From Alphaproteobacteria bacterium (lineage in GTDB: Bacteria > Pseudomonadota > Alphaproteobacteria > GCA-2731375): a stretch of 64,000 bases of DNA. The stretch lies in the NCBI GenBank assembly GCA_965225945.1, contig CBDDBZ010000033.1, positions 224,001 through 288,000 of the forward strand. The letters are read 5' to 3'. A program made the translations under genes and the position numbers. The notes under the pieces were generated by a model, which worked only from the letters and a program-made list of their open reading frames with translations, was not told the origin of the DNA and did no database searches. Position 1 is the first letter of the stretch. Each line of letters opens with the position of its first letter. Shown in pieces: positions 27,595-33,995 of this stretch.

Positions 27595-28375
27595 ATGCGT
27601 CGCATGCTGACCTGCTTGGTCGCTTCATGGATCTTAATCCTCGGTTGTGGCGTGGCTGCCGCGCAGACGTCGAAGACCATCCGCCTGACCAACGGCGAGT
27701 GGCAGCCCTATCTCTCGAAGGACACGCTGCACTACGAGTACGCTTCGCACATCGTCACCGAGGCCTTTGCCCTCGTCGGCGTCGAGGTCGAAAACGGTTT
27801 CTTCCCATGGAAGCGGTCGTTCAAACTCGTAAAGGAAGGAACTTGGGACGGCACCGTGGTCTGGCTCTACACCGACGAGCGCCGAGAGCATTTTCTTTAC
27901 TCGCAAGGGGTCGTCCAAACGAAGTATGCGTTCTTCTATCTGAAAGGTTCCGATTTCGATTGGAATAGCTACGAGGGATTGAGAGGCATCCGTATTGGCG
28001 GGACGTTGCAATACACATATGGCGAGGGATTTGACGCCGCAGAGAAGGCCGGCATTATCAATACGAATCGGGCGCCAAGCGACGAAATCGGACTCAAGAA
28101 GCTGCTGAAGGGCCGAATCGAAGCGTTTCCCGGCGAGGTCAAGGTGACCTACGCGCAGATTCGCGACACCTTCTCCCAGGAGGACGCGGCGTTGTTCACG
28201 CACCACCCCAAAGCCATAAACGAGGCCCCGATGCACCTCTTGCTGAGCAAAAATGTCGCGGGGAACGAGGCGATGCGCGATCTGTTCAACGAAGGACTGA
28301 AGCGCCTCAAGGTAAAGCGGGCGGTATGACCAGATCATCGCCGACGCTCTGGCCGGCAAGTACGCCAAGCCGTGA
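27595..28375 (+). CDS. Family-3 periplasmic solute-binding protein; probable frameshift near 28313
   Basis: Signal peptide, GEWQPY, PWKR; the expected tail SGRYDQIIADALAGKYAKP* is in another frame ending at 28375, while the ORF stops at 28329. Confidence 0.75.
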
Positions 28376-28380
28376 CGAGG

Positions 28381-28629
28381 CGCGAGAAGAGACATATCAA
28401 GCGGATAACTGGCGCGGCTCTCATGTAGCGCGTCGTGATCGTGATCTCAATGGGGGTGCGAAACATGATTAGAGAGTCCGGCTTTCTTTCGTTCAACACG
28501 ATCCGGGCAAAGTTTCTCGCGAGAAGAGACATATCAAGCGGATAACTGGCGCGGCTCTCATGTAGCGCGTCGTGATCGTGATCTCAATGGGGGTGCGAAA
28601 CATGATTAGAGAGTCCGGCTTTCTTTCGT
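28381..28629. repeat. 112-bp direct repeat (28381-28492 and 28518-28629)
   Basis: Identical copies CGCGAGAAGAG...CTTTCTTTCGT separated by 25 bp. Confidence 0.95.
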
Positions 28630-29077
28630 CATCCCGCTTGTGTTGCTTTCGACGATCGCCGTCTTCGGGCTGTTCGAGTTCGATGCCCGCCGGGACGCAA
28701 ACCGCATGCTTCAGGACAAGCTCGACAAGCTGGTCGCCATCCAGAGCGCGGTGGTCGCCAAATCGCTGTGGAACGTCGCCGACGAGCAGATCAAGTTGAT
28801 TCCTTGCCTATCCGGTTATCACCCACACCCACTATATGTAGTGTGCACCCATTTTCCTGAGTAAAGCTCGGTGCAGGTCGAAGCGGAGATATCTCCGGCG
28901 ATGCCGAGCAGGGACTCGGACGGCATTGTAGCGCCTTTTAGGCGACACTTTAGCGTGGTGGAAATCCTAATCATTGAGTCGGATTTGGCAAAACGCCACG
29001 TTGCATAAAGGACCGTCACTTCATTGAAATTTATCTGAAATCGGAGGTGAACGACACCGATGGAATATTCCAGGAAA

Positions 29078-29386
29078 TCAGAGCTTCATTGAATTGTAGG
29101 ATTCGAGTGCCGGATTATTCACAAATAGCTCTGTGAACTGGTTTTCAAGTTCGCTCAATACGTCATATGAAGTAAACGGATTGAGGATCACGTTCTTGCG
29201 TGTCGCTTCGTCTTCGCTGCGACTCAAAACGCGCAGGAGACTAACAGGCGCGGACGGGTTCTTCGCAACGATTCGTGCCAGCGCGTCGCTTTCTTCGACT
29301 AGTGCCGTCAATCGCTCAGACGATGTCGTTTCATCAGCAGCTTCCCGTCTGGCCGTGGGTTTCTTCGTTTTTCCCTTGGTCGCCAC
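29078..29386 (-). CDS. Small leucine-rich-variant (LRV)/HEAT-like repeat protein, copy 1
   Basis: 102 aa with recurring VAKNPSAP / VILNPFTS / FVNNPAL units. Confidence 0.6.
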   Translation of the reverse strand: MATKGKTKKPTARREAADETTSSERLTALVEESDALARIVAKNPSAPVSLLRVLSRSEDEATRKNVILNPFTSYDVLSELENQFTELFVNNPALESYNSMKL

Positions 29387-29556
29387 CGTTCCGTCCCCCG
29401 ATGTTAAGTACGTGACGTGAATTAAACTCCGGTTCGGTTTTCAGAACAATCAAGAATTAGCCGGATCGCCTCCTCAATGCGCCTGCGCCGGCCCTTGCCT
29501 GCAGTCCAAGGAGACACACTACATATAGTGGGTGTGGGTGATAACCGGATAGGCAA

Positions 29557-29850
29557 GGCTTCAACCTCGAAGACACCCACATGACCGACCCGGAGCGCAT
29601 CTCCAAGCTCACCGCCGTCCTTTCCATCACCTTCTGCTGGGCGCACAAAGTCGGCGATTGGCTCCACGAGGCCGAGCCGATCCGCCTCAAAACCCACAAA
29701 AGGATGGCAAAATCCATCTTCCGATACGGTTTCGAGTGGATAAGGCGACAGCTCGTCAATCCTATCGACAGGCGTCAAGCCATTGAGCTGATTCGTTTCC
29801 TCGTCCCCGGAAAACCACCAGTCCAGGTGCCCAGGCCAAAGCCAGCATGA
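29557..29850 (+). pseudogene. IS4-family transposase C-terminal fragment
   Basis: GFNLEDTHMTDPERISKL...FCWAH...SIFRYG; 5' end cut at the cassette TIR. Confidence 0.75.
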
Positions 29851-30129
29851 ACGAGTCGTGTACTGTGCAATCTGACATTAAGTGCACTGTCACCTAATGC
29901 TGTCGATCACCGATTGAGCAACCTGATGTGTGGAAATTCGGAACGCCGTTGATCAGTCCTTGCCTATCCGGTTATCACCCACACCCACTATATGTAGTGT
30001 GTCTCCTTGGACTGCAGGCAAGGGCCGGCGCAGGCGCATTGAGGAGGCGATCCGGCTAATTCTTGATTGTTCTGAAAACCGAACCGGAGTTTAATTCACG
30101 TCACGTACTTAACATCGGGGGACGGAACG

Positions 30130-30438
30130 GTGGCGACCAAGGGAAAAACGAAGAAACCCACGGCCAGACGGGAAGCTGCTGATGAAACGACATCGTCTGA
30201 GCGATTGACGGCACTAGTCGAAGAAAGCGACGCGCTGGCACGAATCGTTGCGAAGAACCCGTCCGCGCCTGTTAGTCTCCTGCGCGTTTTGAGTCGCAGC
30301 GAAGACGAAGCGACACGCAAGAACGTGATCCTCAATCCGTTTACTTCATATGACGTATTGAGCGAACTTGAAAACCAGTTCACAGAGCTATTTGTGAATA
30401 ATCCGGCACTCGAATCCTACAATTCAATGAAGCTCTGA
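30130..30438 (+). CDS. Small LRV/HEAT-like repeat protein, copy 2
   Basis: Translation identical to copy 1; GTG start after GGGGGA. Confidence 0.6.
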   Translation: MATKGKTKKPTARREAADETTSSERLTALVEESDALARIVAKNPSAPVSLLRVLSRSEDEATRKNVILNPFTSYDVLSELENQFTELFVNNPALESYNSMKL

Positions 30439-32107
30439 TTTCCTGGAATATTCCATCGGTGTCGTTCACCTCCGATTTCAGATAAATTTCAATGAAGTGA
30501 CGGTCCTTTATGCAACGTGGCGTTTTGCCAAATCCGACTCAATGATTAGGATTTCCACCACGCTAAAGTGTCGCCTAAAAGGCGCTACAATGCCGTCCGA
30601 GTCCCTGCTCGGCATCGCCGGAGATATCTCCGCTTCGACCTGCACCGAGCTTTACTCAGGAAAATGGGTGCACACTACATATAGTGGGTGTGGGTGATAA
30701 CCGGATAGGTAAGGTTGATTCTCGCCGCGCTGGCCATCGATCCCGACGTCGAGAGCGCCGCCGTATACGACGAGCGGGACCAGCTCGTCGGCTTTACCGG
30801 ATCGGCCGATGAGATCGAGACACGGCCGTTCTTCGCGTCGAAAGAGATCGTCTACGTCTATGACGAGAAGCCCGAGGTCATCGGCCGGCTGACGGTTGCC
30901 TTGACCGACGCGCGTCTGCAATCCGCCGCACGGGAGCGCATGTTCCTGGCCGGCGTTTTGGCGGCCATTCTCATCGTCTCGGTCGTGTTCAGCGCGTTGC
31001 TCGGCAACCGTCGCACGATCGGCATCCCGCTCGAGCGGCTGCTCGCCTCGATCGACCGTTCGCGCGAGGGCGGCAAACGCCAAGCCGTCGATTGGCGGAG
31101 CAACGACGAGATCGGCGCCGTGGTCTCGGCGTTCAACGAGATGCAGGAACGCCAAAAGGCTTACGAGCAGGATCTCGAGGCAACGCGCGACATGCTCGAG
31201 CGCCGCGTCGAGGAGCGCACCCGCGAGCTCGCCCATCTCGCCCGGTTCCCGTCCGAGGACCCGAGCCCGGTGCTCAGGGTGATGCCCGACGGCGCCGTGC
31301 TCTACGCCAACGATGCCGCGATTGCGGTCAATGGGCTGCTCGAGGGAGGCAGGAAGTCGACGCTCCCGCGCGACCTCGCCGGGGTTTGTGCCGAGGCGTC
31401 TCGCACCGCCGAGGTCCGGGAGAGCGAGTTCGAAAGCGGCGATTGCGTCTTCGCCTTGTCGATCGCACCGGTCGCCGACGAGTCCTACATCAATATTTAC
31501 GGCCGCGACATCACCGAACGCAAACGGGCGGAAGCGGACCTGTCCGAGAAGGAAGCCCAACTCCGTCTGACGCTGAACCGTATGCCCGGCGGCATAAGGC
31601 TTGTCGATAAGGACAGAAATTACGTATTATTCAACTCGCGATACTCCGAATTGTACGATTTTCCCGAAGGACTTCTCAAAGTCGGCGATTCCAGCCGTGT
31701 CGAGAATCTTTACCAGGCCCGACGCGGCGACTTCGGCGACGGCGATCCGGAGACGCTGGTCGATGAATGGCGAAACGAAATTCCGGTGCAAACCGAACCC
31801 GCGAGTTGGGAACGAAGAACGGTTGGCGGGAAAACGCTTCGGGTCCGCACGGCACCAACGCCGGATGGCGGTTTCGTGAATATTGTTACCGACATCACCG
31901 CGCACAAGCGCGCCGAGGAAGCGTCGCGCGAGGCGCGCGACTCCGCCGAATTGGCGACGCAGGCCAAGGCGGCGTTCCTCGCCACAATGAGCCATGAGAT
32001 CCGCACGCCCATGAACGGCGTCATCGGCATGGTCGACCTGCTGCGCCGGACCACGCTGGATGATGATCAACGCCAGATGATGACGACCGTGCGCGAATCG
32101 GCGTATT

Positions 32108-32138
<31 letters not shown>

Positions 32139-33995
32139 CTTCTCGAAGATCGAGGCCGGCAAGCTCGATCTCGAGGCGATCCCGATCTCGATCTGCGATG
32201 CCCTCGAAGGCGTCGGCGAAACCCTTGCGCCCACCGCCAGAAACAAGGGCATCCGGCTCAGCACCTACGTCGATCCCGCCATTCCCGATGCGGTTGTCGG
32301 TGACCAAACGCGCATCCGCCAGATCCTTTTTAATCTGGGCGGCAACGCGATCAAGTTCACCGAAGCGGGCAAGGTGCTGATTCGCGCCGACAGGGTGCCC
32401 TCGAAGGCGAAGAAGAAGGTGACCGTCCGCTTCCAGATCATCGATTCAGGCATCGGAATTCCGAAGGAGGCTCAAAGGGAGCTGTTCCAGGCCTTCACCC
32501 AAGCCGAACGTTCGACGGCGCGGCGCTACGGCGGCACCGGGCTGGGGCTCTCGATTGTCCAGCGCTTGGCCAAGATGATGAAGGGTTCGATCGAGGTGGA
32601 GAGCACGCCCGGAAAGGGTTCCGTCTTCACGCTCACGGCGAGCTTCCCCGTGGCCGAGGAGCATCGCATCAAATCCGACGGCCTCGATCTCGCTGGCCTG
32701 AACGTCCTCTTGCTCGTTAGGGACGACGACGTGCGGGAGTTGTTCTCCCGATATCTACGACATTGGAATGCCGAGGTCACTCTGTGCGGGCAGATCGGCC
32801 GAACGAAGCGGCTCGCGCCGGATGCCGTGGCTAAGGGCAAGCCGTTCGATGTCATCGTCATTGGTTCGGGATGGTCGCCTAAAAAGCAGGCCGATGTCAT
32901 CGCGTCCATTCGCGGCGCCGAGGGCCTGGCCGGGACCCGGTTCACCGTCATGGCTTCAACCCGTACGAAGGTGGATCGAATGCATATTGCCGAGACCGCG
33001 ATTGTGGATGCGGACCCACTGCGCCGAGCCAGATTTATCCGCGCCGTCGCCATGGCGGCCGGTCGGGCCAGCCCGGAAGTTCAGTTCGATGAGGATGTAG
33101 TTGCCGCCAAGGGCAGACCGGCGCCCTCGGTCGAGGAAGCCGAAGCGATGGGACAGCTCATCCTGGTGGCCGAGGACGACGTCACGAATCAACAGGTCAT
33201 CCTTCGCCAGCTCAATGTACTCGGCTATGCGGCGACGATCGCAACCGACGGCAAGGAAGCGATGGAGGCCTTGCGGACCAGATCCCACGCTCTGCTGCTG
33301 ACGGACTGCCACATGCCGAACATGGATGGCTACGAGCTGACCGAGGCCATCAGGAAGGCCGAAAAGAAAACCGGAACGCGCCGCCCCATCATCGCGATCA
33401 CCGCCAGCGCGCTGAAAGCGGAGATCGATCGGTGCTTCGAGTCGGGGATGGACGACTATCTCTCCAAACCGCTGGAGATGTCGAAGCTGAACGAGGCCCT
33501 GCGCAAATGGATGCCGGTCCCCGATGACGGATTGCCGGTTGCGGCCGTGGAAGCGCCCGCGATGACGCCGGCCAAGGGTGAACAAGACGACGGCCCGACC
33601 GGTCCCCTCGACCCGAACGCCCTGAAAAGCTTGTTCGGCGACGCCGCCGACACCATCCGTAAACTCCTCGCGAAATTCGTTGCGTCGGCGTCGGAGACGG
33701 TCGCCCAAATCGAAGACGCCTGCAGGCGGAAATCGGCTGAGGAGGTGGGCGCCCTCGGCCACAAATTGAAGTCGTCGTCGAGACAGATTGGGGCATACGC
33801 TCTGTCCGAGGTTTGTGTCGTACTAGAGCGAGCGGGCGCGGCATCCGATTGGCCGACGATCGAGAGCGATGTGCCGATACTGCGCGAGCGCATGAGCGAG
33901 GTGGCCGACTTCATCGCCAATCAGTCTTGAGGCGAACACGCGTGCTACCGATGCGATGCGCGGTGCCAGAACCAGGATGAAGCCATGACGGTTCC

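Follow-up and report, generated by a model that had tools for sequence, protein, structure and literature searches.

A probable composite transposon of two inverted, gene-carrying cassettes derived from the IS1595 family splits a sensor kinase gene in an alphaproteobacterium

In a 64,000-nt stretch of alphaproteobacterial DNA (hereafter the window, which is G000:C33:224001-288000 of assembly G000, 6.27 Mb in 39 contigs), the gene of a hybrid sensor histidine kinase is interrupted by a 1911-bp insert (window positions 28803-30713). Here, we report that this insert is very likely a composite transposon, made of two inverted 755-bp cassettes derived from an insertion sequence (IS) of the IS1595 family, which would have moved whole into the kinase gene. 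The insert is flanked by an 8-bp duplication, GTTGATTC, of which the left (28795-28802) and right (30714-30721) copies are identical. A repeat search of the window returned two inverted arms of 757 nt each (28802-29558 and 29958-30714) around a spacer of 399 nt, each arm being bounded by terminal inverted repeats of about 44 nt, and the two arms mismatch at a single base (window 30710, position 5 of the unit); chance cannot account for a repeat of 757 nt with a single mismatch. The true ends of the unit, set by a census of other genomic copies, lie one base inside the boundaries of the repeat search, which places copy 1 at 28803-29557 on the forward strand and copy 2 at 29959-30713 on the reverse strand. 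Copy 1 is 100% identical to many genomic copies and retains, at its outer end, a 66-aa open reading frame (ORF) left over from the C-terminal part of a transposase of the IS1595 family (28819-29019, reverse strand), next to a 102-aa passenger gene with an LRV_2 domain (PF25591; 29078-29386, reverse strand), and in the inverted copy 2 the same remnant and gene are found on the forward strand at 30497-30697 and 30130-30438, respectively. The inner flanks, GCTTCAAC and GATCAGTC, are unlike each other and unlike the outer flanks. As in a composite, two copies of one element thus bracket a segment, with the target duplication on the outer ends only.

The interrupted gene (28640-33930, forward strand) is split after about codon 54. 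Its upstream ORF starts at 28640 and enters the insert in frame, its downstream ORF (30715-33930) encodes HAMP, PAS, HisKA, HATPase_c, Response_reg, and Hpt domains, and uninterrupted alleles are present in public contigs. Excising the insert together with one duplication fuses ...EQIKLI with LAALAIDP... and keeps the reading frame. An earlier, sequence-only reading of this locus had described the inverted pair with its mismatch at 30710 and its repeats of about 44 nt, the lack of a matching duplication at the inner ends, the restoration of the kinase frame upon precise removal, and the low guanine plus cytosine (G+C) content of the unit, all of which were reproduced (G+C content is 51.1% in the unit vs 66.3% genome-wide). 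As for the boundaries, each is shifted by one base, and the alternative that this reading offered to its duplication TTGATT, with a terminal repeat 1 nt shorter and GTTGATTC as the duplicated 8-mer, is the one that stands.

That the composite moved as one piece is supported by two further lines of evidence. First, a second copy of the same block is found at G000:C38:118397-120226, inverted relative to that of the window and in a different flank, with 1 mismatch over 1830 nt. Second, when the public contigs of four runs (X1, X15, X16, and X17) were placed on 28300-31200 under a bridging rule of 31 nt, contigs of X16, X17, and X1 (three of the four runs, from three studies) were found to join 28794 to 30714, with exactly 8 letters shared; as this joint skips 1919 nt, it lacks the insert plus one duplication and therefore represents an empty site. 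The same block at a second site and an empty target site, together with the outer-only duplication, support the movement of the composite as a single unit and a recent mobility of this putative transposon. In this regard, the earlier view that the outer ends had moved together holds, and the empty-site alleles it recommended looking for do exist in precise form. In two genomes of the same genus, only PAS-domain matches, and no orthologue of the kinase sensor region, were found, and the empty site comes from the public runs.

The cassettes forming the two arms belong to an abundant family. According to the census of genomic copies, the unit is 755 bp long, runs from CTTGCC to GGCAAG, and comes with an 8-bp duplication. 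A BLAST search of the unit against the genome gave 305 matches, of which 74 span at least 600 nt and 57 of these are at least 99% identical (table count), and it is because of these 74 and 57 matches that recent activity of the family, which had been proposed from the window alone, is supported. A scan for the terminal 28 nt with at most 2 mismatches detected 161 unit-type ends and, at a spacing of 600-1000 nt, 61 pairs: the flanking 8-mers were identical in 47 of these pairs, differed by one letter in 4, and by at least 2 letters in 10. The 47 duplicated targets share a palindromic A/T-rich consensus, GWWYRWWC, in a genome with 66% GC, and the GTTGATTC of the composite agrees with it. The unit has ORFs of 102, 95, 66, 46, and 45 aa, and Pfam domains of transposases are absent from it. 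The 66-aa ORF, which has no Pfam match of its own, was recognized by tblastn with the transposase of a second element, IS-B, presented below, of which it aligns with residues 279-338 (39% identity over 79 aa). The characterization of the unit as nonautonomous and gene-carrying is consistent with this short C-terminal remnant being all that is left of a transposase and with the Pfam match of the 102-aa ORF.

IS-B emerged as a second repeat family of the genome, showing a 77% match to unit positions 1-127 at both of its ends. Its canonical form is 1105 bp long (e.g., G000:C32:60944-62048) and encodes a 339-aa transposase with a zinc ribbon (PF12760) and an ISXO2-like DDE domain (PF12762, E 3.6e-37), which also matches the NF033547 model "IS1595 family transposase" (192.6 bits, cut-off 75). 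With this zinc ribbon, this DDE domain, its length of 1105 bp, and an 8-bp duplication, GTTCGATC, on contig C26, IS-B has the traits of the IS1595 family. Its left end is identical to the terminal repeat of the cassette at 30 of 32 bases, and its right end at the first 16 bases and at 35 of 43 overall, which makes it a candidate for the autonomous partner with the same ends that remained to be sought. According to tblastn, full-length transposase genes of IS-B number 7 in the genome, at 99.4-100% identity, and a further 2 contain a 9-aa duplication. Outside this genome, the IS-B transposase reaches 81.7% identity with plasmid proteins annotated as "IS1595-like element ISAcr1 family transposase", of which 8 records fall between 80 and 90%. 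ISAcr1, as found on NC_009468.1, is 1080 bp long with ATATATTG on both sides; its right end is very close to the cassette repeat, and it is 84% identical to cassette positions 1-69. The terminal repeats, which the sequence-only reading had left without a family, are by their similarity of the IS1595 family and ISAcr1-like, and the unit is a transposase-less derivative of an ISAcr1-like IS whose transposase gene has been replaced except for its last ~33 codons. That reading had also asked whether the repeat might match a catalogued element already known to form such composites: it does resemble the catalogued ISAcr1, but a full-text literature search on ISAcr1 found no paper, and nothing on such composites. 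The cassette itself was not found in the plasmid collection, where only ISAcr1-type ends were detected.

The cassette and IS-B also share targets and genomes. Reading along C26:1261-3128, GTTCGATC comes first, followed by the unit, GTTCGATC again, IS-B, and a third GTTCGATC. To look at their distribution, 301 genomes sampled evenly from the class, among them G000, were searched for the LRV gene (E <= 1e-10) and for IS-B-type transposases (E <= 1e-120). The LRV gene was detected in 3 of the 301 genomes (G000, G029, and G218) and IS-B-type transposases in 4, namely these three, with 99-100% identity, and G183, which has a partial copy and is the 1 of the 298 LRV-negative genomes concerned. Among 5 further genomes with an LRV cassette, a transposase at least 80% identical was found in 3, one of 51% in another, and none in the last; in one genome, G041, cassette and IS both start with GTGCC rather than CTTGCC. 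On the basis of this co-occurrence, of the target shared at C26, and of the near-identical copies, we infer that the cassette is mobilized in trans by a cognate transposase, and that IS-B or a near-identical IS probably drives its transposition.

Several side observations concern this partner. In G029 and G218, the partner transposase is 99% identical and occurs 7 times among the matches listed in each, and the LRV gene is present, a pattern that points to a putative recent joint horizontal spread of transposase and LRV cassette. G041 (locus L044) shows about 70 short matches, at 62% identity, to transposase residues 10-48 genome-wide, which probably represent another high-copy derivative family, one in which the 5' end, not the 3' end, of the transposase gene has been retained. 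On C26 and at C32:60935-60944, cassette and IS-B stand end to end with exactly 8 bp between them, and in a contig of X15, the right end of a cassette is joined to a left end with 7 letters between; such end-to-end arrangements reflect either duplications reused as targets or tandem/circle-type junctions. In G000, IS-B is mostly found in a 1633-bp (or 1658-bp) form, in which the complete IS of 1105 bp is followed by 514 bp that repeat its right end in inverted orientation; this form transposes by means of two right ends and comes with 8-bp duplications (C14:57695-59327 [L031], C1, C15, C33:95821-97478, C38:177697-179355, and C27 from 160122 onward). Deletion derivatives of IS-B of 1122 bp, without the first 14 codons, are present as well.

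The DNA enclosed by the two cassettes keeps traces of the locus where the composite may have formed. The 401 bp between the copies consist of a 310-bp IS4-family tail (29558-29867, forward strand), 44 bp private to the composite's two copies (29868-29911), and the 47-bp left end of an IS256-family IS (29912-29958, forward strand). The first piece is a 100% match to positions 914-1223 of a full 1223-bp IS that makes 9-bp duplications and of which the transposase matches PF01609 and NF033591 (264 bits, cut-off 152); cut by the insertion of cassette copy 1, it still codes for the C-terminal ~96 aa of this transposase, confirming the tail noticed earlier, and it matches roughly 60 genomic places by BLAST. 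The third piece corresponds to positions 1-47 of a 1340-bp IS (transposase matching PF00872 and NF033543, 304.9 bits) and is cut by the insertion of copy 2; the 46-bp left end of this IS gave 31 short-query BLAST matches, mostly to full copies. As for the 44-bp segment, BLAST of the inner segment gave full-length matches only on C33 (the window) and C38, and it presumably stems from the site at which the composite arose. Both simple insertions from which the composite would derive survive elsewhere in the genome. At C32:58709, where the left junction of the insertion into the IS4-type IS is preserved, positions 1-923 of this IS enter a unit at GCTTCAAC, the same 8-mer as in the inner flank of the composite, and at C1:537-1310, a solo unit has inserted into positions 40-47 of the IS256-type IS, flanked by the duplication GACTGATC and oriented as in the composite.

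Positions 40-47 of the IS256-type IS are in fact an insertion hot spot, at which both the cassette and the partner IS have landed in several contigs (e.g., G000:C1:1312, C14:59328, C27:160121, C32:62049, and window 29951-29958), and another cassette lies 3 nt from it at C26:91468. The outer flanks are identical between the C14 and C27 sites, which may represent a single locus that entered the assembly twice. At C32:57789-62500 (L026), a nested pile starts with the IS4-type IS (1-923), the first 87 nt of a cassette, and a complete IS256-type IS, and continues with 35 nt of the IS4-type IS in inverted orientation, a cassette that is complete and inverted, the partner IS, and another IS256-type IS. 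The two junctions left by the ancestral entry of a cassette into the IS4-type IS are both still present in this pile, but rearranged.

The composite of the window is not the only one in this genome. When all end pairs within 15 kb were searched for identical outer 8-mers, a composite at C24:55786-61169 (L078) was found besides interrupted single copies. In this case, two direct units bracket 3874 bp between outer 8-mers GATCAGAC, and the cargo comprises genes for a thiamine pyrophosphate (TPP)-dependent enzyme (PF02775) and a putative oxidoreductase (PF16490, Oxidoreduct_C). The same 3874-bp segment is present without units at C34:100947-105008, 99.6% identical, and the outer flanks of the C24 composite have no match at the C34 locus. 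The earlier suggestion that the family is able to form composites and move host DNA is borne out by this element. With regard to other cargo between the same ends, for which a search had been advised, the outcome is divided: an exact scan of metagenome contigs for the 39-nt terminal repeat gave 14 stretches, whose both-end cases are 754-755 bp apart with no other cargo, but C24 does provide a composite carrying host genes.

We can thereby sketch a possible history. At an earlier locus, an IS4-family and an IS256-family IS would have lain 44 bp apart, and one cassette copy would have entered each of them, in opposite orientations. An IS1595-family DDE transposase acting in trans, most likely donated by the 1105-bp IS-B, with its at least 7 intact transposase genes in the genome, would then have taken the two outermost ends and inserted the whole block into an 8-bp target of the GWWYRWWC type in the 5' part of the kinase gene, thereby duplicating GTTGATTC and splitting the gene. 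Several points weigh against this scenario. The ancestral locus, with IS4-type IS, 44 bp, and IS256-type IS in a row, was not found in this genome. The C38 copy is without 82 nt at one outer end, so its own duplication is not checkable. The run X15 yielded no empty-site joint; its contig entering the left end extends by just 22 nt into the element, short of the 31 nt required for bridging, and does not count as an occupied allele. The inner junctions are bridged by no public contig, these being short and breaking at the repeats, and support for the inner arrangement comes from the assembly, where it is seen at two loci. Mobilization in trans is itself deduced from sequence. Between the cassette repeats and IS-B, 2 of 32 bases are different at the left end of IS-B and 8 of 43 at the right one, and a closer partner than IS-B may exist. 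Finally, G029 and G218 belong to one taxonomic family, unlike that of G000, and the co-occurrence counts are not independent.

Some of these points bear on the identity of the driver, and the alternative that survives best, although we consider it unlikely, is that another IS1595-family transposase of the genome, or a closer partner no longer present, moved the composite in place of IS-B. The genome does contain many other IS1595-type transposase genes, 25-48% identical to that of IS-B, and the ends of one such subfamily (36% identical) share the core CCTATCCGGTTA; moreover, the cassette repeats are identical to neither end of IS-B, and the transposase remnant of the cassette is, as seen above, only distantly similar to the IS-B C-terminus. 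However, the terminal 15-16 bases and the match of 30 out of 32 at the left end are found with IS-B only, IS-B and the cassette occupy the very same 8-bp target at C26, and a transposase 99-100% identical to that of IS-B is found in all 3 LRV-positive genomes, vs 1 of 298 LRV-negative ones, all of which favors IS-B or a close relative as the probable source.

Alternatively, the composite might have been built in place, by a solo cassette inserting into the kinase gene, with creation of the duplication, and later being converted through recombination or gene conversion with a composite located elsewhere, such as that of C38. With 74 near-identical copies, recombination is plausible, and rearranged copies without duplications do occur, as seen in the 10 of 61 pairs with flanks at least 2 letters different and in the nested pile of C32. 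Yet, on the right side, the homology available for such a conversion is limited to the 44-bp inverted terminal repeat, and the conversion would need to yield exact outer ends and the duplication; given that the C24 composite, with other content, also has matching outer 8-mers, transposition explains both elements, and assembly in place appears highly improbable. That the structure is an assembly artefact, either a fold-back chimera or a repeat mis-join, is least credible of all, for even if the element is a 74-copy repeat with unbridged inner junctions and if the window differs from the contigs of three runs by 104 nt just upstream (28521-28624), a fold-back would also invert the flanks, whereas the kinase keeps one orientation across the insert, with a perfect 8-bp duplication, the center is an asymmetric 401 bp from two different IS fragments, and the same 1830 nt recur in a second contig with a different flank.

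Passenger genes were first emphasized in the IS1595 family. De Palmenaer et al. reportedly described, in 2004, the mobile insertion cassette (MIC) MIC231 of Bacillus cereus, in the IS4 family, and Siguier et al., in 2009, are said to have described a "transporter IS" of the IS1595 family. The cassette resembles MICs in having IS ends around a nontransposition gene, in having no transposase, and in its putative mobilization in trans, but MIC231 is of the IS4 family, when the cassette here is IS1595-derived. ISAcr1, from Acidiphilium plasmids (e.g., NC_009468.1), likewise has an 8-bp duplication and a right end near the cassette's repeat but is autonomous, whereas the cassette has an LRV_2 gene in place of all but ~33 transposase codons. 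MICs and ISs with passenger genes are both presented as standard categories in the literature (PMC3129680). In the same way, composites of nonautonomous elements are already described: TIME-COMP1, with inverted arms one base apart, and TIME-COMP2, with direct arms, are reported to have been captured experimentally in trap plasmids (PMC4133298, 2014). As portrayed in that report, these have in common with the present element paired nonautonomous arms, unrelated DNA inside, an outer-only duplication, and a transposase provided in trans, and the arms of our composite, like those of TIME-COMP1, differ by one base (PMC4133298). They are, however, described as members of the Tn3 superfamily with a 5-bp duplication and arms that are 262-bp gene-less MITEs (miniature inverted-repeat transposable elements), whereas the present arms are 755-bp gene-carrying IS1595 cassettes with 8-bp duplications, and their mobility is experimental when ours is deduced from two loci and empty sites (PMC4133298). 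Further TIME-COMPs have been reported as well. In the IS1595 family, members are described as generating 8-bp A/T-rich duplications, and Tn7560 is introduced as a pseudo-compound transposon bounded by ISApl4 (PMC12561309). The composite is like Tn7560 in its IS1595 ends, its 8-bp A/T-rich duplications, its many genomic copies, and its two copies around a cargo, but the arms of Tn7560 appear there as complete, autonomous, direct ISs, when those found here lack a transposase (PMC12561309). A last parallel is offered by MITE-flanked integrons of Acinetobacter, which are depicted with one nonautonomous element at both ends and a duplication suggesting joint movement; their arms are 439-bp gene-less MITEs and their cargo resistance genes, in contrast to the IS debris (window) or metabolic genes (C24) carried here (PMC3934969).

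Against this background, what is particular to the present case is the IS1595 family and the gene-carrying arms, and the interest of the genome is to display the stages of transposase-less gene capture side by side: solo cassettes, both parental insertions, and two composites, of which the one with IS debris occurs at two sites and is polymorphic in nature, and the one at C24 copied 3.9 kb of host metabolic genes. Composite formation, experimental for Tn3-derived MITEs, would thereby be extended to the IS1595 family and to gene-carrying cassettes. The analysis also defines a widespread cassette family, with 234 related proteins and a sole gene under purifying selection, and it raises the testable question of what a nonautonomous element gains from carrying a gene. 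In terms of annotation, the case shows that 50 genomic repeats of a "hypothetical protein" correspond to a mobile cassette.

The LRV gene of the cassette is conserved. Its 102-aa product matches the Pfam domain LRV_2 (PF25591, E 2.6e-8, 34.1 bits, cut-off 27), and the 309-nt ORF, which has 50 exact genomic copies, has the orientation of the former transposase gene and sits in its place. As a presumed nontransposition passenger, it makes the unit a cassette rather than a MITE. In the protein collection, 234 of 251 candidates qualified as LRV relatives at E <= 0.001, and the 120 listed among them are 74-99% identical, mostly of 102 aa, and mostly on contigs under 2 kb. Among 15 related loci of the species-genome collection, unit-type end motifs were found on both sides of the ORF in 8 and on one side in 2, and the 5 distant relatives (41-56% identity) have no such motifs. 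Given that the end spacing is about 520-545 bp in 6 of the 8 two-sided loci, a shorter form of the cassette, without the transposase remnant, exists. In 10 pairwise comparisons among 5 intact ORFs (the present one and 4 from other genomes), the ratio of nonsynonymous to synonymous substitution rates (dN/dS) was 0.17-0.34, when the ORF is broken in 5 of 5 older, 80-94% identical copies examined in this genome and, of 7 loci inspected in other genomes, in 3. These ratios of the intact ORFs and these broken old copies point to an LRV gene maintained by selection in living cassette lineages.

What this protein does can be approached by conjecture. An AlphaFold2 model (35 sequences) is all-helical, with a mean predicted local distance difference test (pLDDT) of only 66.6; a profile search of PDB sequences gave one match, meaningless at E 0.92, the ESM Atlas returned only LRV-type clusters, and the ORF had no NCBIfam match. 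The prediction of a complex between the IS-B transposase and the LRV protein (score 0.02, mark 0.32) is evidence neither way, and the literature searched contained nothing linking leucine rich repeat variant proteins with transposition, nor any description of the cassette family. It is conceivable, although rather doubtful, that the LRV_2 protein is no passive passenger but an element-encoded factor that gives the cassette an advantage over its autonomous partner in being mobilized or maintained, and that may, for example, bind the borrowed ISAcr1-type transposase or the element ends. Compatible with this idea are the place and orientation of the gene, those of the former transposase gene; the intact ORF under purifying selection across several genomes while old copies decay; the fact that the LRV gene accompanies the same transposase across taxonomic families; and the 74 matches of the cassette vs the 7 intact transposase genes of the partner. 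If this were true, the cassette family would be a parasite of a parasite, with a gene of its own.

Regarding the surroundings of the composite, a promoter and terminator scan of the region found 2 signals vs 1.5 expected, which is at chance level. Directly upstream of the kinase start, a 112-nt stretch occurs twice, 100% identical and 137 nt apart (window 28381-28629). The contigs of X15, X16, and X17 are all without 104 nt of this region (28521-28624) and differ there by one other letter, which reflects either a duplication polymorphism or an assembly difference of the window.

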